From Marivirga sp. (GTDB lineage: Bacteria; Bacteroidota; Bacteroidia; Cytophagales; Cyclobacteriaceae), in the NCBI RefSeq assembly GCF_051117495.1, contig NZ_JBNPEF010000017.1, forward strand, positions 45,158-109,157: DNA of 64,000 bases. The letters are read 5' to 3'. The position numbers and the translations under genes are program-made. This document shows, one piece after another, positions 6,366 to 17,164 of the stretch (its first letter is position 1; every line of letters starts with the position of its first letter). The notes beneath the pieces are model-generated. The model ran no database searches and was not told the DNA's origin. It saw only the letters and a program-made list of their open reading frames with translations.

Positions 6366-6785
6366 TTAATAATCAACTCTTGCCAAAAATTCCTGTGCTG
6401 TTAAAACTGGCAATTTTGAATTCTTAAAATCTTTTTTATTTCTACTTATAATTATATCTACTTGATTTTCAATTGCGGAATAATACTGCAATCCATCTTC
6501 AAAATCAGGGAAGCTTTCATCACTTAAAGCAAGCTCGGTTATTTTATCATCTAAACTAACAACCTCTACCAAAACCTTAAACTTCCTAAGAATCGCTCTT
6601 GCCTCCTTTGCTGATTTTAATTTACTGAGGATATAATTCGTATTGGCGAATGTTAAAGATGATATCGCTAGGTTCAATTCTTTCCTATCTGACAAAGAAA
6701 ATAGTTCTGCTGCATCATTGTAAAACTCTTTTCTTTTAGCCAATAAATCAATTACAATATTCGTATCAATCAGTAAGCTTTTCAT
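6366..6785 (-). CDS. PIN-domain (VapC-like) toxin
   Basis: LLIDTNIVIDLL at the N-terminus; DFEDGLQY and SRNKKDF acidic PIN motifs; overlaps the upstream small gene by 4 nt. Confidence 0.9.
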   Translation of the reverse strand: MKSLLIDTNIVIDLLAKRKEFYNDAAELFSLSDRKELNLAISSLTFANTNYILSKLKSAKEARAILRKFKVLVEVVSLDDKITELALSDESFPDFEDGLQYYSAIENQVDIIISRNKKDFKNSKLPVLTAQEFLARVDY

Positions 6786-7027
6786 TTATACTTCTCTATT
6801 AAATAATGAGCATAAGAATCCTTAACGTCAAAATCATCCTCTAAAGAAATAACCCCACTTAGGCTTTTTACCAAAGGCGTAATCTCCTTTTCATTTGCTG
6901 TGGATTTTGTCAAAGTACTTAAATAAGATTCTATTAATTTGGATAAACTGGTATTATTTGACTTCGCATATATTTTTGCGGTCTCAATAATTTTATCATT
7001 CAAACTTAAGGTGAGTTTTTTGTCCAT
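6782..7027 (-). CDS. DUF6364-type ribbon-helix-helix antitoxin
   Basis: MDKKLTLSLNDKIIETAKIYAKSNNTSLSKLIESYL...LVKSLSGVI. Real start likely ATG 7027; ATGA/TAA-type coupling to the PIN gene. Confidence 0.8.
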   Translation of the reverse strand: MDKKLTLSLNDKIIETAKIYAKSNNTSLSKLIESYLSTLTKSTANEKEITPLVKSLSGVISLEDDFDVKDSYAHYLIEKYK

Positions 7028-7154
7028 AACATAAATCTTTACGTACAAATATAATATTAATTTACGTGAACTTAAGCGAATTGGTTTTAAATGATCATTT
7101 TTCACTGATTGATTTTGCAAGAACCTGCTGACTGATTGCAATATTAATCCATTT

Positions 7155-8498: not shown

Positions 8499-10355
8499 CT
8501 AATTCTTAGCCATCATACTGCTCGATTCTACCAGCTTGATGAATTCTATTCTATAACCATTTTCATCTTTTCCTTTTGCACCTTTGGCTAAATCTGTCAC
8601 TAGCTTATAATCCCCATTTTCAATGTAATCAGAATCCTTCAAAAGCATCCCGTAAGTGGCCACAGCGGCCGACCATCGAAAGTTATCAGAAGTTTTATCA
8701 AGTGCTGTAATAGTGTTTTCTACCGTTTTTACAATTAACTGACTCACCTCCTCATCTGGCGCTTTGTATCTGAATTTTATGGTAAGTAGCTCATCACCAT
8801 ACGTCACTTTTTCTGTCTTTGGCTCATTTTTCTGATACTTTAGATCATCAATAGGTTTGAAATAACTATCCACACCTTTAGGGATAATTTCATATAAAGC
8901 GGTAACCGTATGACCGGAGCCTAGCTCTCCTGCATCTTTTTTATCATTATTAAAATCCTCATTATTGAGCTTTCTATTCTCATAGCCAATTAATCGATAG
9001 GCTGTAACGTTTGCAGGATTGAACTCTACCTGAATTTTAACATCTTTCGCTATGGTAAAAAGTGTCCCTCCAAATTCGTTTACCAACACTTTTTTCGCTT
9101 CTAAAATATTGTCTATATAGGCATAGTTACCGTTTCCTTTATCAGCCAATATTTCCATTTTTGAATCCTTGTAGTTACCCATCCCAAAGCCTAAAACAGT
9201 AAGAAAGACCCCTTCTTTTCTTTTCTTCTCAATCAAATCTTCCATGGCTTCATTTGAACTTGCTCCCACATTAAAGTCACCATCAGTGGCTAAAATGATG
9301 CGGTTGTTGCCTTCTTTCATGAAATTTTCTTTGGCGATTTTATAGGCTAATTCAATGCCTGCTCCACCGGCAGTAGAACCACCTGCCTGTAAATTTTGTA
9401 GCGCTTCATTGATTTTGTCTTTTTCTTTGCCTGAAGTAGGGGGAAGCACACATCCTGCGGCACCAGCATACACTACAATAGACACCTTATCCTCTTCTCG
9501 AAGCTGTTCAACCAACATTTTCAGGCCTGATTTCAGTAAGGGCAGTTTATTTTGTGCAAACATAGAACCTGACACATCTAAGAGAAAAACTAGATTGGAA
9601 GCAGGCAAATTTTCTGTTGGAATTACCTTGCCCTGTAAGCCAATGTGAACAAGTTGATGTTTTTCATTCCAAGGGGCTGGCGCTACTTCGGTGTTGATCG
9701 AAAAAGAATCTTGACCAGTTGGTTGCTTGTAGTCATAATTGAAGTAGTTAATCATTTCCTCTATCCTCACTGCATCTTTAGGTGGATTTTGACCACTGTT
9801 GATAAATCTTCTCATATTGGAGTAAGAAGCAGCATCGACATCTATGGAAAAAGTGGACAGTGGATTTTGGGTAGCTTCCTGAAAAGTATTTTCGTCAAGA
9901 CCTTCGTAATCCTCGGTGTTAGGCTGATGATAGGATGATTCAGTATCTTCCATGAAATAAACTTGATCACCCTCATAGCTTGCCGCTTTTCTTTGTGAGA
10001 AAAAATTCCGAACAGGACTACCAGTGACTACCACTTCTGATAATTGGGCAACATCAGCTTTCAATTGCACATCAATAACACTTCGCCCTTTTATTGCCAC
10101 TTCTTTTTTCTCCATTCCAATGTAGGTAAAAACTAAAACCCCCTTTAGAGAAGGCACTTCGATTAAATATTCTCCATATAAATCAGTAGTCACCCCTGTG
10201 GAAGTACCTTTCAGTATTACATTCACACCTGGTAAATCCTCGCCACTATCGAAATCGGTGACTTTCCCGCTGATAGTGATTGATTGTGCGGCTAACATAG
10301 CAGAGCTGATCAAAATCAGACTACTTATTCTTATTGCATCCATTAACTTCTTCAT
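8499..10355 (-). CDS. Secreted YfbK-like vWA protein with an N-terminal SusC-type extension (CarboxypepD_reg-like), TonB-box-like motif, vWF_A and DUF3520-type C-terminus
   Basis: Signal peptide; ISGKVTD...LPGVNV.LKGT...TTDLYG (NTE); QLSEVVVTG; PLSTFSIDVDAASY; MIDAS DVSGS...TDG; YRLIGYENR. Start MKKL at 10355 preferred over 10490. Confidence 0.85.
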   Translation of the reverse strand: MKKLMDAIRISSLILISSAMLAAQSITISGKVTDFDSGEDLPGVNVILKGTSTGVTTDLYGEYLIEVPSLKGVLVFTYIGMEKKEVAIKGRSVIDVQLKADVAQLSEVVVTGSPVRNFFSQRKAASYEGDQVYFMEDTESSYHQPNTEDYEGLDENTFQEATQNPLSTFSIDVDAASYSNMRRFINSGQNPPKDAVRIEEMINYFNYDYKQPTGQDSFSINTEVAPAPWNEKHQLVHIGLQGKVIPTENLPASNLVFLLDVSGSMFAQNKLPLLKSGLKMLVEQLREEDKVSIVVYAGAAGCVLPPTSGKEKDKINEALQNLQAGGSTAGGAGIELAYKIAKENFMKEGNNRIILATDGDFNVGASSNEAMEDLIEKKRKEGVFLTVLGFGMGNYKDSKMEILADKGNGNYAYIDNILEAKKVLVNEFGGTLFTIAKDVKIQVEFNPANVTAYRLIGYENRKLNNEDFNNDKKDAGELGSGHTVTALYEIIPKGVDSYFKPIDDLKYQKNEPKTEKVTYGDELLTIKFRYKAPDEEVSQLIVKTVENTITALDKTSDNFRWSAAVATYGMLLKDSDYIENGDYKLVTDLAKGAKGKDENGYRIEFIKLVESSSMMAKN

Positions 10356-10617
10356 AATCGATAATTTTATGTGAAACATTTTTATTGACAGGATGCAGCC
10401 TCCCCATAAATTCCATAAAATTATTTTCAGTTTTTTATTTATTGAAAAGAAACTAAAGGTAATAATCAAGCAAATAGTCATATAAAACACTATAGATCAA
10501 TCGGATATCAATCAATTAAACTTTGCAATTTGCTATTGAATTAAACTCAGAATTTCAGTTTTCTGTATTTTATTGACATATAAAAAATTAACTTAGCAAC
10601 TTCCACAGCAGCATTGA

Positions 10618-11193
10618 GTGACTGATAAAAACGACATACAAGAAGAAAAACAATTGCTTGAACAATTCCGAGAATCTCAGGATCTTGAGCTGTTGGGCAA
10701 GTTATATCAACCTTATATGCATCTGGTCTATGGAGTATGCCTTAAATATTTGAAAGACAAGGATTTAGCCCAGGATGCTGTAATGGCTATTTTTGAAGAA
10801 TTAGTGATAAAACTTCCCAAGCATGAAGTAGAGAACTTTAAAAGTTGGCTTTACGTCCTATCCAAAAACCATTGTTTAATGGAATTGAGAAAGCAAAAAC
10901 GTCAAAAAACGGATAGTTTTGATTTTTCAGACCTTGAGCTTATGGAAAATGGACAATGGAAGCATCATGAAGAAGACTATACTATTCAAGAAGACAATCT
11001 TGAAAAATTAACTGCATGTATTGCGCAATTAAAGAAAGAACAAAGGCAATGCGTGGAGTTGTTCTACTTGGACAAAAAGAGTTATCAGGAAATTACAGAT
11101 AGCACTTCATACGAATTAAAGAAAGTGAAAAGCTATATACAAAATGCGAAACGAAATTTAAAACAGTGCATGGAACAAGGTGAAGAAAGATAA
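10618..11193 (+). CDS. ECF RNA polymerase sigma-70 factor
   Basis: Region 2 (DAVMAIF...FKSWLYVLSKNHC) and region 4 (LFYLDKKSYQEI...VKSYIQNAKRNLK); overlaps the downstream anti-sigma gene. Confidence 0.92.
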   Translation: MTDKNDIQEEKQLLEQFRESQDLELLGKLYQPYMHLVYGVCLKYLKDKDLAQDAVMAIFEELVIKLPKHEVENFKSWLYVLSKNHCLMELRKQKRQKTDSFDFSDLELMENGQWKHHEEDYTIQEDNLEKLTACIAQLKKEQRQCVELFYLDKKSYQEITDSTSYELKKVKSYIQNAKRNLKQCMEQGEER

Positions 11194-12550
11194 AAACCAT
11201 ATTGACCCTAATTGGGAATTTAGCATAGAAAAAATGCAAGCTTATGTGAAAGGCACTTTAAGCCCTGAAGAGCAGCATCAGGTTGAAAAATATTTGCTGA
11301 ATCATCCTTTTGAGGCAGAGGCCATGGAAGGGTATTTGGAAAATCCAGATGCGCTACATGATTTGCCAAGCCTTAAGGCCAAGTTGCAGACTAGAACTAC
11401 TCCAGAGCAAGAACAACGAACAATACCTTTATGGAGAAAAGCATTGCCTTATGCTGCCGTCTTTTTATTGCTTATTATTTCTAGCGTACTCATTATCATT
11501 TTTTTTCAGCAAGATGAATCATTTACTCCTTTGGCTATTAAATCGGAAGAGGCCATAAAATTTGAAAAGAATAAAAGCCCTACAAACCCGCCCAGCACTT
11601 TACAAGCTGAGAAAATAGAAAAGGAAGCAGAGAATCTACCAAAGGCAACAGTTGAAAGTAATGAATCTGAAAGTAAACAAGAAATAGAAGTGCCTATCAA
11701 AATAGTCGAAGATGCTGAACGCATTTCTCAAAATGAAACGATTAGTATTGAGGAGGATTTAATTGTATCGGAAACGGCTTTCCCTTATGAAGACAGCTTT
11801 CAAGATTTGAATGCCGACTCCATGGCGAAAAAAGTGGCAGGAATTGAGGCCGATCAAAACAAGTCTTCCGTAGCAAGAAGTAAAAAGGCAAATGAATTGG
11901 CATCTTCTATTGCTCCCACTAATGAGCAAACGGATCAAGCAGATAAGAGAAAAGTTGCCGTCTCCAAAAGGATTTCAGGAGAAGTGCTAGATGCTGAAAC
12001 GGGAGAGGCTATTCCAGGAGCTAATGTAATAGTCAAAGGTACTTCCATAGCCACAAGCACTGATTTAAATGGCAATTTTGAAATTGAAGCAAAATTAAAC
12101 GATGTCCTCATCGTGAATTTTATAGGCATGGAGCAGCAAGAGTTTGTAGTGAGTGAAGAGACGGATAATAAAATATTTCTAAATGCTGATGTTGCTCAAT
12201 TAAGCGAAGTCGTTGTTACAAGTGTCGGCCAAGAGAAAGAAGAAGACAATACCTATAGTGGAGCAAGACCTAGCATCGGATTTTCAGATTATCGTGATTA
12301 TCTCAAAGATAATTTAAGATATCCTCCTAAAGCTTTGGAGGCTGGAACAGAAGGAAGGGTAAGATTAAAATTAAGTATCAATGCCTCTGGTAATATTACG
12401 GAGATAGAGGTACTAAAAGGACTAGGAGATGGCTGTGATGAAGAAGCTATACGCTTAATCAAGGAAGGACCAAGATGGGAACCTGCTAAAAAGGGAGATA
12501 CACCCGTGGCTTCAAGCAAGAAAATTACGGTTCGGTTTAAAATTGAATAA
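11180..12550 (+). CDS. Anti-sigma-like membrane protein fused to a SusC-type NTE domain and a TonB C-terminal domain
   Basis: Cytoplasmic N-terminus (YVKGTLSPEEQHQVEKYLLNHPFEAEAMEG), one TM (AAVFLLLIISSVLIIIFF), a low-complexity linker, an NTE (ISGEVLD...IPGANVIVKGT), QLSEVVVT, and TonB_C (NLRYPPKALEAGTEGRVRLKLSINASG...AIRLIKEGPRWEPA). Confidence 0.85.
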   Translation: MKKDKNHIDPNWEFSIEKMQAYVKGTLSPEEQHQVEKYLLNHPFEAEAMEGYLENPDALHDLPSLKAKLQTRTTPEQEQRTIPLWRKALPYAAVFLLLIISSVLIIIFFQQDESFTPLAIKSEEAIKFEKNKSPTNPPSTLQAEKIEKEAENLPKATVESNESESKQEIEVPIKIVEDAERISQNETISIEEDLIVSETAFPYEDSFQDLNADSMAKKVAGIEADQNKSSVARSKKANELASSIAPTNEQTDQADKRKVAVSKRISGEVLDAETGEAIPGANVIVKGTSIATSTDLNGNFEIEAKLNDVLIVNFIGMEQQEFVVSEETDNKIFLNADVAQLSEVVVTSVGQEKEEDNTYSGARPSIGFSDYRDYLKDNLRYPPKALEAGTEGRVRLKLSINASGNITEIEVLKGLGDGCDEEAIRLIKEGPRWEPAKKGDTPVASSKKITVRFKIE

Positions 12551-12598: not shown

Positions 12599-12644
12599 TT
12601 TGTGGCGACACAACGCCTTTAAAGACGCAACGCATTGCGTCTCT
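12599..12644. repeat. Two adjacent REP-like palindromes (TTGTG-nnGA-CACAA and AGACGCAA-CGCA-TTGCGTCT)
   Basis: TTTGTGGCGACACAA 12599-12613 resembles 40172-40195 and 40225-40246; AGACGCAACGCATTGCGTCT 12623-12642 resembles 44494-44521. Confidence 0.55.
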
Positions 12645-12649
12645 GCCAC

Positions 12650-15600
12650 ATGATCATTACCAAATTAAATCAAATGCGCATCCAAAATGCCCACCAAAAC
12701 AATCTTAAAAACATTGATCTAACTATTCCTGAAAACCAATTAATTGTGGTAACCGGTTTATCGGGCTCCGGAAAATCTTCATTGGCTATGGGCGTAATTG
12801 CTAATGAAGGCTATCGCTATTTCTTGGAAAGTCTTTCGGCATATAATCAGCAAAATGGCCAGTTAATTCCTACCGCTGAGGTTGATGATATACAGGATTT
12901 GCCACCTGTGATTAAGGTGGAACAATCCAAACGCTTCCAATCAATCAATACCACTTTTGGTACGCTCTCAGAGCTGACGGCTATTTTTAGAATTCTATTT
13001 GCGCGCTATTCAGCTGATGAAAAGATGAGCAAATCGCTATTTTCCTTCAATCACCCAAGAGGCGCCTGTGAAGTATGCAGAGGAATAGGCGAGGCAGAAT
13101 ATATTGACCTCGATAAATTAATTGGCGATGAAAATAAGACCCTTCGTGAAGGCGCTATCACCACTACTTTGCCAGGTGGCTATATCGTCTATTCGCAGAT
13201 AACAGTAGAGGAGCTAAACAAAGTATGTGAAGCACATGGATTCAATGTGGATATTCCATGGAAGGATCTTACTGAAGAACAACAAGATGTAGTTTTAAAT
13301 GGAAGTGATCGGCTCAAGGTGTTTTATGGAAAACATGGCTTAGAGTCTCGATTAAGATGGGAAGGCATTAAGGCAAAACCAAGAGAAGAGGGCTATTATA
13401 AAGGTATGCTGCCGATCATGCAGGATATTCTCAGAAGAGATAGAAACCCTAACATTTTGAAATTTGCAAGCTCAAAAGTGTGCCCGAGTTGTAAAGGCGC
13501 AAGGATTAAAGCAGAGCATCTTAAATTCCAATGGAACGGGATGAATTTTCAGGAATGGATGAAGCCTTCTTTGGGCGAATTATTTGTAAAGCTTAATTCT
13601 CTTAAGTTTTCAGCTGGGGAAAAAGTGTTGGTAGAAAAGATCATCATTCAATTATATGACCTTATTCGCTTAGGTATGGAGGAATATCAGCTCAGCACGC
13701 CAAGCACGGATATCTCCTCCGGGGATGCACAAAGAATCAAACTGATCAACCAAGTGAATAGTAATCTGCAGGGCATTTTATATGTTTTTGATGAGCCTTC
13801 TATTGGCTTATCGGCAGACTACCAGCAATATTTACTACACATTCTAGATCGGCTAATTCGAAGAGGAAATACAGTGATGGTAGTGGAGCATGACCTGGAA
13901 TTTATCAAGTCCGCTGACTGGATTGTGGAGTTAGGGCCCGAAGCCGGAGTTCATGGTGGGGAAGTTATTTTTAATGGCCCTATTAAGGATTTTCTAAAGG
14001 CCGAGAAAATAAACAGTTCAACTTTGAAGGCCTTGAATCAGGGAAATTCAATTGATGGTGAACCTCCGAAAAACGTCTTGGATACTGAGTTTACCCCCGA
14101 AGCACAAAAATTGACAGTCATAAGTCGCAAGACTGCGACACTACTTCAAAGCATTTCGAGCTTTTGCAAAAAGCAGAACTTAAGCTTACTGACCGTAACG
14201 GATCAGCCAATAGGAAAAACTCCCAGAAGTAATCCGGCCACATATACTGGACTAGCAGATAAAATACGAGACTTGCTAGCCAAAACCTCTGAAGCAAAAG
14301 AATTAAAGCTAGCAAAGGGAGCTTTCTCATTTAACAACAAAACCGGAAGATGCGAAGCCTGCGAAGGAGCAGGTGTGATTACACTGTCGATGAGCGCACT
14401 TGGAAATATCAATCAGGTGTGTCCAACCTGCAATGGCAAGCGATTTAAGCCGGAAGTGCTTCGTGTAAATTGGAATGAAAAAAATATTGCGGACATCTAC
14501 AATCTTAGCATAGAAGAAGCTTATGATTTCTTCGCTGGGGAAAAGAAAATCACTGAAATCCTGTCTTTGATGCTACAGTTAGGCTTAGGCTATATCAAAT
14601 TGGGACAACCTTCCAATACCTTATCGGGTGGAGAGGCACAACGGATAAAACTCACCAAGCATTTCGCCAAGAAATCAAAGAAGACACTTTTACAACTGCA
14701 AGAACCCAGCATCGGATTGCACCAACAAAATGTAAGGCAACTGCTCGATGCACTGCATGAACTAAAGGAACAGACGGCAGGTATTATCTGCTTTGAGAAT
14801 CATGCTCTTTTCCAAAAGGGATGCGATACTTTAGTGGATAACGCACTGGAAATGCACGCTGTCGAAATTCAAGAAAAACCGAATCAGCAAAGAGAAAAAA
14901 TAACAATTCAGGGAGCTAGAACTCATTGCCTGAAAGACTTAGACTTGGAACTGCCAAAGCATAAACTATCCGTAGTTACAGGAATTTCAGGTTCAGGCAA
15001 ATCTTCTCTTGTAATTGACACTTTGCATGGCTACGGACTGCAAGAAATGACCAAGCAATTTTCGAGTTATCAGCAGTCGAGAGTGGGTGTGAATTTTCAG
15101 TTTGAAGTCAACTACATAGAAGGACTTACGCCTACAATCTGTATTACGCGAAAGCAAAAGAATTATTCTATTAGAACGGACATAGCCAAACAAACGGGTA
15201 TTGATAAAATCCTACGTTTTGCCTTTTCCCGAAAGGCGCAGTTTGAAGGCAAAGATTTATCCGCCAGTCACTTTTCGAATAATCACGAACTGGGGAAATG
15301 CGTAGTTTGCGAAGGCATAGGTGAAGAATTATTGCCTGATTTGAACAAATTGGTATTGGATGAAAACAAAAGCATAGCTGAAGGCCTCTTTGCCCACAAT
15401 AAAGCGATTGGATACTATGGTGATCCATCTGGTCAACATATGGCTATATTGAAGAAAATTGGAACAGAACATGGCTTTAGCCTGGTTACGCCTTTCAAGG
15501 AATTAAGTGAAGTGCAAAAGGATATTCTATTTCATGGGACAGGAGAAAAAGTATGGAATGCTACCTGGGAATACAAAACGAAAACACGTACAGGTACGCA

Positions 15601-17164
15601 AGACTTGAACATGAAATGGGAAGGTCTTTTTCAATATCTGCAAGAGGAATATTACAAAACCAGAAAGAATAAAAACATTAGCCAGCTGACCTCATTATTT
15701 TCTTATAGCAAATGTAGCCATTGCGAAGGCAGCGGATTAAAACCAGAAAGACTGACTTTTACATTAGCAGGAAAGTCTATTCATGCTATAAAATCGATGA
15801 ACTTTAAAACCCTGGGCGAATGGTTAACTGCACATGATACAGATAACACTGTTGACGGAAAATTACTCGCTAAAATTGAACCCCATTTAATCAACACCAT
15901 GGAACGGGCAAAGCAATTACATATTGACCATCTCCAACTCAACAGAAAATCGCCTACCCTTTCAGGGGGTGAAAACCAAAGGCTAGAGTTGATCAAACAG
16001 CTCAATAGCCCACTAAAAGGGATCAGCTATTTATTGGATGAGCCTTCTGCAGGCTTATCGAATGATAACATTCCTGATCTCATTAAAATTCTGAAAGAGC
16101 TGATAGAAAAAAGAAATACAGTCATCATCATTGAGCATAATAAAGCCATTATCCATGCTGCGGATCATCTGGTACAGATTGGGCCGAAGGCAGGAAAACA
16201 GGGTGGCTATATTACCTATCAGGGAACCACAAAAGGGCTTCTAGAACAAGATGAATGCCACCCATTCTTGAAGGAGCCAAGCAAACCGCTACAGCTCAAT
16301 GATGGAAAGAAACATATCCATATTCGTAAGCTGGCAAAACATACTTTGGTGCGAGATGAGCTTAAACTACCTATTGGCGGCATCACTGCTCTTACAGGAA
16401 AATCAGGAATTGGAAAAACCACTTTGGTAAAAGACATCCTGATTCCAAGCGTTCAAAAGGGAGGTCCCGTGAATTGTGAGCAGATTGAAATTCCTAAAAT
16501 ATATGACAGTGCAGAGTATTTTGAGCCTAAAAAACTAAATAGCCATTCGGATACATTATTGGTTGCTTATTTAGATCTACTGAAAGATATCACGAAAATA
16601 TTTGCATCTGAAACGGGTGAAAAGGCTGCCGACTTCTCCTACAAAAACAAAAGCAGTCAGTGCTCAGCTTGTAAAGGAAAAGGATATGTAGAAACTAGCC
16701 TGGATGTTGCCGCCAATGCGATTGAAAAGTGTGAGGACTGTGATGGAAAACGCTATCGAAAAGATATACTAAAACATGAAATAGAGGGACAAAACATTGC
16801 GGACATCCTAGCTCTTAATATAGCAGAATTAAGTGCTTGGTTTGCGGAATTTAAAGTGTCGAATTCTACCTTTAATTTCATCAATAGCTTAGAAGAAATA
16901 GGCTTGTCACATTTGAGTTTAGAGCAAACGGTGCAATCGCTTTCTTCAGGTGAAAAGCAACGCTTGCTACTCTTGACCTGGCTACAAAATGCCCCGAAAA
17001 ACGAACTCTTTATTTTAGATGAACCAAGCACCGGATTACATTATGCGGACATCGACCTGCTTTATGGAATCTTAGAAAAACTCAGCATGGATAATGATGT
17101 TCTCGTGATTGACCATAATTTGTATTTGTTGGAGATGATTGGGGTTGGATTTGTATTGAGCTGA
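12650..17164 (+). CDS. Tandem-duplicated UvrA-like ABC ATPase (four NBDs, several Zn-finger CxxC pairs; class II/DrrC-like)
   Basis: Two UvrA-like halves beginning IQNAHQNNLKNIDL and IQGARTHCLKDLDL; Walker A GLSGSGKS, GISGSGKS, GKSGIGKT; signatures ISSGDAQR, LSGGEAQR, LSGGENQR, LSSGEKQR. Start is uncertain (12635/12650/12674). Confidence 0.85.
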   Translation: MIITKLNQMRIQNAHQNNLKNIDLTIPENQLIVVTGLSGSGKSSLAMGVIANEGYRYFLESLSAYNQQNGQLIPTAEVDDIQDLPPVIKVEQSKRFQSINTTFGTLSELTAIFRILFARYSADEKMSKSLFSFNHPRGACEVCRGIGEAEYIDLDKLIGDENKTLREGAITTTLPGGYIVYSQITVEELNKVCEAHGFNVDIPWKDLTEEQQDVVLNGSDRLKVFYGKHGLESRLRWEGIKAKPREEGYYKGMLPIMQDILRRDRNPNILKFASSKVCPSCKGARIKAEHLKFQWNGMNFQEWMKPSLGELFVKLNSLKFSAGEKVLVEKIIIQLYDLIRLGMEEYQLSTPSTDISSGDAQRIKLINQVNSNLQGILYVFDEPSIGLSADYQQYLLHILDRLIRRGNTVMVVEHDLEFIKSADWIVELGPEAGVHGGEVIFNGPIKDFLKAEKINSSTLKALNQGNSIDGEPPKNVLDTEFTPEAQKLTVISRKTATLLQSISSFCKKQNLSLLTVTDQPIGKTPRSNPATYTGLADKIRDLLAKTSEAKELKLAKGAFSFNNKTGRCEACEGAGVITLSMSALGNINQVCPTCNGKRFKPEVLRVNWNEKNIADIYNLSIEEAYDFFAGEKKITEILSLMLQLGLGYIKLGQPSNTLSGGEAQRIKLTKHFAKKSKKTLLQLQEPSIGLHQQNVRQLLDALHELKEQTAGIICFENHALFQKGCDTLVDNALEMHAVEIQEKPNQQREKITIQGARTHCLKDLDLELPKHKLSVVTGISGSGKSSLVIDTLHGYGLQEMTKQFSSYQQSRVGVNFQFEVNYIEGLTPTICITRKQKNYSIRTDIAKQTGIDKILRFAFSRKAQFEGKDLSASHFSNNHELGKCVVCEGIGEELLPDLNKLVLDENKSIAEGLFAHNKAIGYYGDPSGQHMAILKKIGTEHGFSLVTPFKELSEVQKDILFHGTGEKVWNATWEYKTKTRTGTQDLNMKWEGLFQYLQEEYYKTRKNKNISQLTSLFSYSKCSHCEGSGLKPERLTFTLAGKSIHAIKSMNFKTLGEWLTAHDTDNTVDGKLLAKIEPHLINTMERAKQLHIDHLQLNRKSPTLSGGENQRLELIKQLNSPLKGISYLLDEPSAGLSNDNIPDLIKILKELIEKRNTVIIIEHNKAIIHAADHLVQIGPKAGKQGGYITYQGTTKGLLEQDECHPFLKEPSKPLQLNDGKKHIHIRKLAKHTLVRDELKLPIGGITALTGKSGIGKTTLVKDILIPSVQKGGPVNCEQIEIPKIYDSAEYFEPKKLNSHSDTLLVAYLDLLKDITKIFASETGEKAADFSYKNKSSQCSACKGKGYVETSLDVAANAIEKCEDCDGKRYRKDILKHEIEGQNIADILALNIAELSAWFAEFKVSNSTFNFINSLEEIGLSHLSLEQTVQSLSSGEKQRLLLLTWLQNAPKNELFILDEPSTGLHYADIDLLYGILEKLSMDNDVLVIDHNLYLLEMIGVGFVLS

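Follow-up and report, generated by a model that had tools for sequence, protein, structure and literature searches.

An ECF255-type envelope-signalling cassette in Marivirga with predicted SusC-type TonB boxes on both its anti-sigma factor and its vWA protein

In a 64,000-nucleotide stretch of Marivirga sp. DNA (contig NZ_JBNPEF010000017.1, positions 45,158 to 109,157; hereafter the window), Pfam matches delineate three genes between positions 8499 and 12550: a gene for a vWA (von Willebrand factor A) protein on the minus strand, an extracytoplasmic function (ECF) sigma factor gene in the middle on the plus strand, and an anti-sigma factor gene, also on the plus strand. By its features the locus matches a widespread Bacteroidota cassette whose sigma factor belongs to group ECF255. 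Both periplasmic products carry an identical 12-residue TonB box region, ADVAQLSEVVVT, and the anti-sigma factor additionally ends in a TonB C-terminal domain (TonB_C). We consider it probable, if well short of certain, that the three genes form an envelope-signalling cassette that combines a defined transcriptional wiring with an input through TonB-box/TonB_C contacts made in trans. The wiring, in which the sigma factor drives the vWA gene and its own anti-sigma factor, is strongly inferred; pairing of box and TonB_C as the signal input is plausible, and that it acts in trans is proposed with lower confidence. In the usual TonB/TonB-box contact, an inner-membrane motor protein supplies one half and an outer-membrane transporter the other. 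Here, the two halves stand on a regulator and on the product of its target gene.

Results

A shared TonB box and its origin

A reading of the locus from its sequence alone (the sequence-only reading) had started from the 12-residue match, which is exact. Degenerate back-translation of ADVAQLSEVVVT gives exactly two matches in the window, at 10024–10058 (−) and 12185–12219 (+), and none in 100 shuffles. The box regions comprise residues 100–111 of the vWA protein (10023–10058, −) and residues 336–347 of the anti-sigma factor (12185–12220, +). Each directly follows a SusC-type N-terminal extension (NTE; CarbopepD_reg_2, PF13715), located at 10059–10274 (−) in the vWA protein (E=6e-18) and at 11966–12184 (+), residues 263–335, in the anti-sigma factor (E=8e-19). 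The NTE-plus-box segments of the two proteins are 50% identical over 90 aa, with the box itself matching at 12/12 positions. Neither protein has the barrel of a TonB-dependent transporter, as had been noted: Pfam Plug and TonB_dep_Rec matches are absent from both, and the SusC/RagA model TIGR04056 aligns with the two NTEs over model positions 1–86 and 2–97 of 981 only, at 89–92 bits against a cut-off of 368 (E=2e-25 for the vWA N-terminus).

The identity of the two boxes reflects the SusC TonB-box consensus of the lineage, kept in both proteins, and is not a private match of the pair. Among 105 anti-sigma and 116 vWA protein homologues, ADVAQLSEVVVT agrees with the majority residue of either family at 10 of 12 positions and is the most frequent 12-mer in both samples, and random cross-family pairs share a mean of 7.7 of 12 positions. 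SusC-type open reading frames (ORFs) of the same genome carry near-identical boxes (TDVQQLSEVVVT, PDVQQLSEVVVT), with further readings such as TDVQQLSEVVVTGYG, PDVQQLSEVVVTGYG, SDVSQLSEVVVVGYG and similar. The vWA NTE shares 64–68% identity with SusC NTEs of this genome, against 44–50% with the NTE of the anti-sigma factor. The arrangement typical of SusC/RagA proteins, an NTE followed by a (D/S)EVVVTG Ton box, is present in both proteins, and the motif has its counterpart in the Ton box 82-DEVVVTG-88 of BT1763, which has been validated by experiment (PMC7782687). The match arises because each protein keeps this consensus, and an exact peptide repeat in neighbouring genes can, as a caution, be mere family-wide consensus.

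Recent gene conversion between the modules is ruled out by their low nucleotide identity (57–65%) together with the low sharing of codons (the same codon at 38–59% of identical residues). Within the box, 6 of 12 codons differ between the two copies (GCC/GCT, TCA/AGC, GTG/GTC, GTA/GTT, GTC/GTT and the last codon), which had been taken as a sign of selection on the peptide, and the homologues bear this out. The anti-sigma consensus reads x-D-V-(A/S/T)-Q-L-S-E-V-V-V-T-G-Y-G (n=105), with L341 and E343 invariant, and the vWA consensus (n=116) is identical, with E107 invariant. In neither family is any segment as well conserved as the box, which also exceeds the NTE that precedes it and is under strong purifying selection at the protein level.

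Covariation of the two boxes, which the sequence-only reading had put up for checking across orthologous loci along with the paired motif, was assessed with one locus per clade in 26 clades and permuted pairs as control. Both the paired motif and the covariation are present: boxes of the same locus share 8.2–8.4 of 15 positions compared with 6.6–6.8 ± 0.25 for permuted pairs (p < 1e-4), and outside the box NTE identity is 0.40–0.42 within a locus compared with 0.345 ± 0.009. Pair-specific co-evolution is nevertheless rejected, since the peculiarities also occur in SusC boxes of the genomes concerned and, in the genome of the window, the vWA NTE is nearer to SusC NTEs than to the anti-sigma NTE. 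Odd box residues common to the anti-sigma factor and the vWA protein recur in SusC boxes in four other genomes. In G101, for example, the SusC boxes read SLGEVVVTG.A and one SusC has the exact PDATSLGEVVVT of the anti-sigma factor, and in G193 the shared peculiarity is DLVAL (DLVAL.E). The identity between anti-sigma and vWA NTEs is never above the best identity of either to a SusC NTE. That the boxes track those of the genome's SusC proteins suggests that all answer to the same TonB-type partners, and it supports functional TonB boxes without showing a private contact between the anti-sigma factor and the vWA protein.

Genome-specific flavours of SusC-type box and NTE were seen in five genomes (G000, which is that of the window, G101, G190, G191 and G193; loci L137–L172). 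These flavours are common to transporters, anti-sigma factor and vWA protein, in G000 without DNA-level conversion, and suggest family-wide co-evolution with the TonB proteins of each genome. At one locus (L028, genome G006), the anti-sigma factor and the vWA protein each have Asn at box position 4, where five SusCs of that genome have K/Q/Q/Q/E; this N/N change is the sole pair-specific double change seen and is anecdotal.

Promoters and regulatory wiring

A single block is conserved in all Marivirga intergenic regions aligned, TTATGGAAT-N13-GCATCC, which lies some 35 nt upstream of the start codon of the vWA gene. In the window it reads TATGGAAT-N13-GCATCC (10391–10417, −), and the ECF255-type promoter of the vWA gene is placed at 10391–10415 (−), with a −35 element TGGAAT (10410–10415), a 13-nt spacer and a −10 element GCATCC (10391–10396), 35 nt from the ATG. 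The motif was derived independently, before the published ECF255 text was consulted. Counted as TGGAA[TA]-N12-14-CATC within 300 nt upstream of the vWA gene, it occurs in 58 of 74 Bacteroidota loci, 55 of them with identical spacing, against a background of 0.02 per 300 nt. It precedes the vWA gene across the class, also at loci without an adjacent sigma gene. Sphingobacterium-type loci carry it about 50 nt upstream of the sigma gene itself, which is consistent with autoregulation in some lineages, and in L035, L038 and the Roseivirga loci L117 and L136 it stands before each of the two divergent genes. Its placement before the vWA gene and, elsewhere, before the sigma gene ties the motif to this sigma family. 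The sigma factor very probably transcribes the divergent vWA gene from this predicted promoter, as the sequence-only reading had proposed. Upstream of the Marivirga sigma gene the ECF255 motif is absent; a conserved TTAACTTAGCAA block at that place may belong to a putative housekeeping promoter.

The pattern TGGAAW-N13-GCATC has only two matches in the window, where 0.13 are expected. The second, TGGAAAATGGACAATGGAAGCATC (10943–10966, +), lies within the sigma gene across the codons M-E-N-G-Q-W-K-H-H, and 80 of 103 orthologues have the site at the same position. The wobble base before its His codon is G in 77 of these 80, against a 26% baseline, and the codon after Glu always starts with A or T. 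Because the wobble G is kept across 14 different amino acids, the constraint acts on the DNA and not on the protein. From this intragenic motif the sigma factor probably drives the anti-sigma gene, which would provide negative feedback. Strict and relaxed motif scans of the assembly for a wider regulon yielded no other credible target. The additional sites were intragenic or implausible, for example two inside ORFs (C42:63489 and C22:152930) and one before a cytoplasmic Smr-like gene (C21:53158).

Architecture of the three proteins

The sigma factor (10618–11193, +; 191 aa) has Sigma70_r2 and r4_2 as its only Pfam domains, and NCBIfam returns generic or sub-threshold ECF matches only. The vWA gene (8499–10355, −) encodes a predicted periplasmic protein of 618 aa in the order NTE, TonB box and YfbK-like part (Pfam CarbopepD_reg_2, vWF_A, VWA and YfbK_C). 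Its start codon is the ATG at 10355, corrected from a start further upstream, and the protein begins MKKLMD; a 618-aa database protein (P0121) is 100% identical. A signal peptide can be read in the translation at residues 1–23 (MKKLMDAIRISSLILISSAMLAA, followed by Q at the inferred cleavage site; 10287–10355, −) and contains no Cys, so the protein should not be a lipoprotein. Beyond the box follow vWF_A (PF12450; 9645–9923, −; E=2e-44), the VWA domain (9114–9596, −; E=1e-18) and YfbK_C, also called DUF3520 (PF12034; 8517–9068, −; E=2e-76). The metal ion-dependent adhesion site (MIDAS) of the VWA domain, DxSxS, is intact in the translation as DVSGS (9564–9578, −), and with vWF_A, VWA and YfbK_C completes the set of features of a YfbK-like protein.

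The anti-sigma gene (11180–12550, +; 456 aa) shares its first 14 nt with the end of the sigma gene and is translationally coupled to it. The protein was modelled with AlphaFold2 (AF2) twice, at full length with 105 homologues and as its periplasmic part with 42 orthologues; the confidence of the models is given as pLDDT (predicted local distance difference test). The full-length run predicts a cytoplasmic four-helix domain at residues 16–73 (11225–11398, +; helices 16–24, 29–41, 43–54 and 56–73, pLDDT 86–96), a single transmembrane (TM) helix at residues 84–110 (11429–11509, +) and disorder at residues 118–257 (11531–11950, +; pLDDT <50). The four-helix domain has a weak match to the anti-sigma model NF052375, and the gene lies at position +1 relative to the sigma gene. 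The disordered segment would span the periplasm as a linker, whose length varies from 127 to 237 aa across the family. The NTE (263–334 in this run) and TonB_C (358–456) both exceed pLDDT 90, the NTE in both runs, and the box and spacer at 345–351 fall below 50. In the second run mean pLDDT is 91, residues 343–354 are below 50 and no strand is added. The self-bound resting state that the sequence-only reading had envisaged, with the box docked in cis on TonB_C, therefore finds no support in two models that lack a docked box.

Between box and TonB_C lies a spacer (12221–12262, +) that is short and variable by family comparison, and Glu343 and Pro364 are mostly 20–24 residues apart in the family. 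TonB_C, correctly recognised by the sequence-only reading, occupies residues 362–456 (12263–12547, +; PF03544 E=1e-17; pLDDT 96–98). It aligns with the solved TonB C-terminal domains 7zc8, 6i97 and 2gsk, including those crystallised with BtuB and FoxA. Of the hallmarks of a TonB energy transducer, the protein has a TonB_C with the YP motif and lacks the SHLS-type His, which is missing from the TM region of the window protein and of 98 of 105 homologues. The anti-sigma factor is thus built like a non-energised TonB, with an anti-sigma domain, a His-less TM helix, a 140-aa linker, an NTE, a box and a TonB_C. No exbBD genes are present within the cassette.

Distribution and variants of the cassette

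The divergent vWA gene and the sigma/anti-sigma pair are kept in 16 of 16 orthologous loci fetched from relatives. A sigma alignment search of GTDB species-representative genomes finds orthologues at at least 585 loci, in taxa that include Pedobacter, Sphingobacterium, Mucilaginibacter, Chitinophaga, Cytophagales (among them Cyclobacteriaceae and Roseivirga), Bacteroidales, Marinilabiliaceae and Saprospirales, and close homologues come under the names Marivirga, Fulvivirga and similar. Architectures were counted in 103 non-redundant loci. The arrangement of the window, an anti-sigma factor with NTE, box and TonB_C facing an NTE-box vWA gene, accounts for 45 loci, and a further 8 have the same anti-sigma factor without an adjacent vWA gene. 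The anti-sigma factor has NTE and TonB_C with a degenerate box in 12 loci, TonB_C without NTE in 24, and no TonB_C in 13, some of them on truncated contigs. Proteins of the last class have TPR repeats at their end, or a small beta domain, or a fragment resembling a SusC plug. Among loci that combine an anti-sigma TonB_C with an adjacent vWA gene, about 54 of 59 retain the vWA box, as do 3 of 6 without TonB_C; this co-occurrence is weakly suggestive, the counts being uncorrected for phylogeny. Twelve genomes were taken in which the fetched ECF255-type locus has no adjacent vWA gene. Eight of these encode an NTE-vWA protein elsewhere, and five of the eight have a second complete cassette.

Several individual loci depart from the common plan. 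In three Bacteroidia loci (L050 of genome G100, L045 and L055) the vWA protein retains NTE, box and a plug fragment, which shows that the vWA N-terminus derives from a transporter N-terminus. The anti-sigma factor of L050 ends in a SusC plug-like segment (..PLYIIDG..ITILQDLEAISKYG..GVVIITTKNG) in place of TonB_C. The vWA gene is split into two overlapping ORFs in L027 (genome G004; 375+280 aa) and L030 (genome G015; 474+215 aa), which would reflect either a frameshift or pseudogene or an assembly error.

Comparison with known systems

Group ECF255 was defined by Casas-Pastor et al. 2021 (NAR 49:986; supplement, bioRxiv 10.1101/2019.12.11.873521) and is known from that computational classification alone, without a studied member. 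Its description lists a +1 anti-sigma factor with one TM helix, TonB_C and CarbopepD_reg, a secreted −1 protein with vWA, DUF3520 and CarbopepD_reg, and the promoter TATGGAT..GCATCT (bioRxiv 10.1101/2019.12.11.873521). Two conserved Cys in sigma2 and one in sigma4 complete the definition (Casas-Pastor et al. 2021). The Marivirga locus has the same composition: a Bacteroidetes ECF sigma factor with regions 2 and 4 only, a +1 anti-sigma factor with one TM helix and extracytoplasmic TonB_C and CarbopepD_reg, and a −1 vWA, DUF3520 and CarbopepD_reg protein with a signal peptide. Its promoter TATGGAAT-N13-GCATCC resembles the published −35 TATGGAT and −10 GCATCT. In sigma2, C35 and C80 are invariant in the sigma alignment, and further Cys lie towards the C-terminus of the window sigma factor. 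The sequence-only reading regarded its mechanism as undescribed, which is true in part: the cassette was already catalogued as ECF255, with the proposal that TonB_C senses through contact with a Ton-box-bearing transporter (Casas-Pastor et al. 2021), whereas the published text mentions neither TonB boxes on the anti-sigma factor and the vWA protein nor a promoter copy inside the sigma gene. Two features are thus new relative to that description: a TonB box conserved on the two periplasmic proteins alike, and a further copy of the promoter within the sigma gene.

FecI/FecR/FecA signalling and the SusC-linked groups ECF239 and ECF240 likewise pair an ECF sigma factor with a single-pass anti-sigma factor and signal through TonB and TonB-box contacts at the periplasmic face of the outer membrane. 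The Marivirga cassette differs in having no FecR/DUF4974, STN domain or transducer barrel (Pfam, TIGR04056) and in that the anti-sigma factor itself carries the TonB_C. With the SusC/RagA N-terminus, exemplified by BT1763, it shares the Ig-like NTE (PF13715) and the flexible (D/S)EVVVTG Ton box behind it. Deletion of either NTE or Ton box abolishes BT1763 function (Gray et al. 2021, PMC7782687). In contrast to SusC/RagA, plug and 22-strand barrel are missing here, and what follows the module is a vWA protein or a TonB_C domain.

The layout of the anti-sigma factor (456 aa) is that of TonB11 (BT4460) of B. thetaiotaomicron, a 449-aa protein with CarbopepD_reg_2 at 228–309 and TonB_C at 379–440 (Pollet et al. 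2023, PMC10350073) that is reported close to a predicted transcriptional regulator (PMC10350073); the likeness is one of layout. TonB11 and TonB7 (BT3192) have, however, been treated as TonB paralogues, with no discussion of an anti-sigma role, a box or a vWA partner (PMC10350073). The Marivirga genome also encodes a 268-aa NTE and TonB_C protein without an anti-sigma domain, in the TonB7 layout (L174; G000:C21:152245-153048, −).

In ECF289 and ECF226 a YfbK-like vWA-DUF3520 module is also the extracytoplasmic partner of an ECF anti-sigma factor. There the module is covalently part of the anti-sigma factor; here it is separate, predicted to be sigma-induced and equipped with a TonB box. Because vWA-DUF3520 is fused to the anti-sigma factor in those groups, a non-covalent complex of anti-sigma factor and vWA protein would, by analogy, be parsimonious. 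A force-transducer role has been proposed for YfbK-like vWA proteins that are tethered to the inner membrane and have TonB-like helices (Mol Biol Evol 2025, PMC12204202); they similarly tie a YfbK-like vWA head to Ton/Tol-type machinery. Those proteins have a TonB-like TM helix with SHLS and adjoining motor genes, whereas the vWA protein here is soluble and, with its TonB box, stands on the transporter side of the contact. Dma, a dual-membrane anti-sigma family (PMC10927553), was considered and rejected as a relative, its C-terminal domain being a different one, an 8-strand barrel, and its sigma group ECF21.

About 7 kb before the start of the window lies a gene for a 1985-aa bacterial alpha-2-macroglobulin (MG2, A2M, bMG10; L173, G000:C39:32189-38143, −). 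A SusC-type NTE, the TonB box PDVQQLSEVVVTGYG and a Plug fragment are inserted at its residues 1133–1315. A 'TonB handle' has thus been grafted onto a further non-transporter periplasmic protein of this genome.

Discussion

Our analysis favours a model in which the sigma factor would transcribe the vWA gene from TATGGAAT-N13-GCATCC and its own anti-sigma gene from the motif within the sigma coding sequence, giving output and negative feedback together. The input would be beta-strand pairing in trans between TonB_C and an exposed SusC-type TonB box. The TonB_C of the anti-sigma factor would dock on periplasmic TonB boxes, which may be those of the sigma-induced vWA protein and of ligand-loaded SusC transporters, and the anti-sigma factor's own NTE and box might be offered to, or compete for, the same TonB domains. 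Occupancy of TonB_C would then alter the stability of the anti-sigma factor or its susceptibility to proteolysis and so release the sigma factor. A self-docked resting state is neither needed nor predicted by this model.

Several observations weigh against this input. The covariation of the two boxes is genome-wide rather than pair-specific. The sensor part of the anti-sigma factor is replaceable, as the TPR, small beta domain and plug fragment endings of some lineages show, the 12 loci described above retain NTE and TonB_C yet have a degenerate box, and in 5 loci an anti-sigma factor with TonB_C is accompanied by a vWA protein without a box. A vWA homologue is absent altogether from 4 of the 12 genomes whose fetched locus lacks an adjacent vWA gene, so that, on this distribution, the vWA protein cannot be the only ligand of TonB_C. 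The disordered box of the AF2 models fits a trans ligand but, as a prediction, proves nothing.

On a broader view, which we put forward as speculative and on balance unlikely in its entirety, the cassette would exemplify surface signalling without a barrel, built on TonB-box/TonB_C pairing. The anti-sigma factor would sample exposed SusC-type boxes and thereby read how far the many SusC transporters of the cell are loaded. The induced vWA protein would close a feedback loop, either by docking on the anti-sigma TonB_C or by competing with the anti-sigma box for the cell's TonBs, and the NTE-box unit would be a 'TonB handle' that Bacteroidota can transplant to non-transporter periplasmic proteins such as vWA proteins, alpha-2-macroglobulin and anti-sigma factors.

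The best surviving alternative, although in our estimation an unlikely one, is that the boxes are handles for force. Energised TonB-ExbBD would pull on the anti-sigma factor, unfolding it or exposing a cleavage site for sigma release, and also on the vWA protein, which would be a two-piece version of the vWA 'force transducers'; TonB_C would mainly serve as an anchor. The NTE and box of both proteins are as near or nearer to the genome's SusC modules than to each other, and recognition by a housekeeping TonB would give that pattern. The anti-sigma TM helix lacks the His needed for energising of its own, vWA force transducers with TonB-like helices have a published precedent as a proposal (PMC12204202), and the NTE, box and plug in the alpha-2-macroglobulin of the same genome indicate that the handle is portable. 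The model leaves unexplained why the anti-sigma factor should need a canonical TonB_C, and the cassette brings no exbBD genes of its own.

We regard as improbable the strand-swap mechanism of the sequence-only reading, in which resting TonB_C is bound to its own box in cis as a decoy and is displaced by the box of the vWA protein or of a TonB-dependent transporter, or by a MIDAS ligand, to free the sigma factor. The fairly narrow range of box to TonB_C distances in most family members (20–24 residues) would suit it, as would the invariant L and E of the box and the persistence of box and TonB_C where the NTE is gone, for example in L039 with KLSEVIVS 17 residues ahead of TonB_C. Against these stand both AF2 runs, in which the two domains are modelled at pLDDT >90 while box and spacer stay below 50 and add no strand, as well as the degenerate box in 12 loci with NTE and TonB_C. 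The reading is weakened further by lineages in which the sigma/anti-sigma pair persists although the box, TonB_C or any vWA gene is missing. Most doubtful of all is the view that the module is baggage, with the NTE a spacer or folding domain copied from SusC, the EVVV strand structural and the cassette sensing a non-TonB input such as through the vWA MIDAS: the vWA box is indeed lost in L039–L043, L046, L047, L053, L054 and L056 and the box in some anti-sigma factors, with sigma factor, anti-sigma N-terminus, vWA protein and promoter persisting where it is lost and anti-sigma sensor domains interchangeable, but conservation of the box exceeds that of the preceding NTE in both families, the models place the box outside the NTE fold, like that of BT1763, and at the protein level it tracks the SusC flavour of its genome without gene conversion, which is unexpected for a neutral relic.

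The favoured reading, a cassette that takes its input from TonB boxes in trans, offers practical experimental handles in its two predicted promoters, the invariant L-x-E-V-V-V box of both proteins and the defined domain boundaries. Identifying the signal that the cassette senses could reveal the purpose of the SusC NTE, and could show whether Bacteroidota keep watch on the state of their SusC/TonB networks, which are very large.

Flanking genes

Downstream of the anti-sigma gene, a gene at 12635–17164 (+) encodes a 1509-aa double UvrA-like ABC ATPase. It lies outside the cassette, since the neighbours vary in several orthologous loci; the ABC ATPase ORF is nonetheless kept in a few Marivirga loci (L023, L024). 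On the other side of the cassette, two small overlapping ORFs at 6366–7141 (−), of 139 aa (starting MKSLLIDTNIVIDLL) and 119 aa, look, on reading their translations, like a PIN/VapC-type toxin and its antitoxin.

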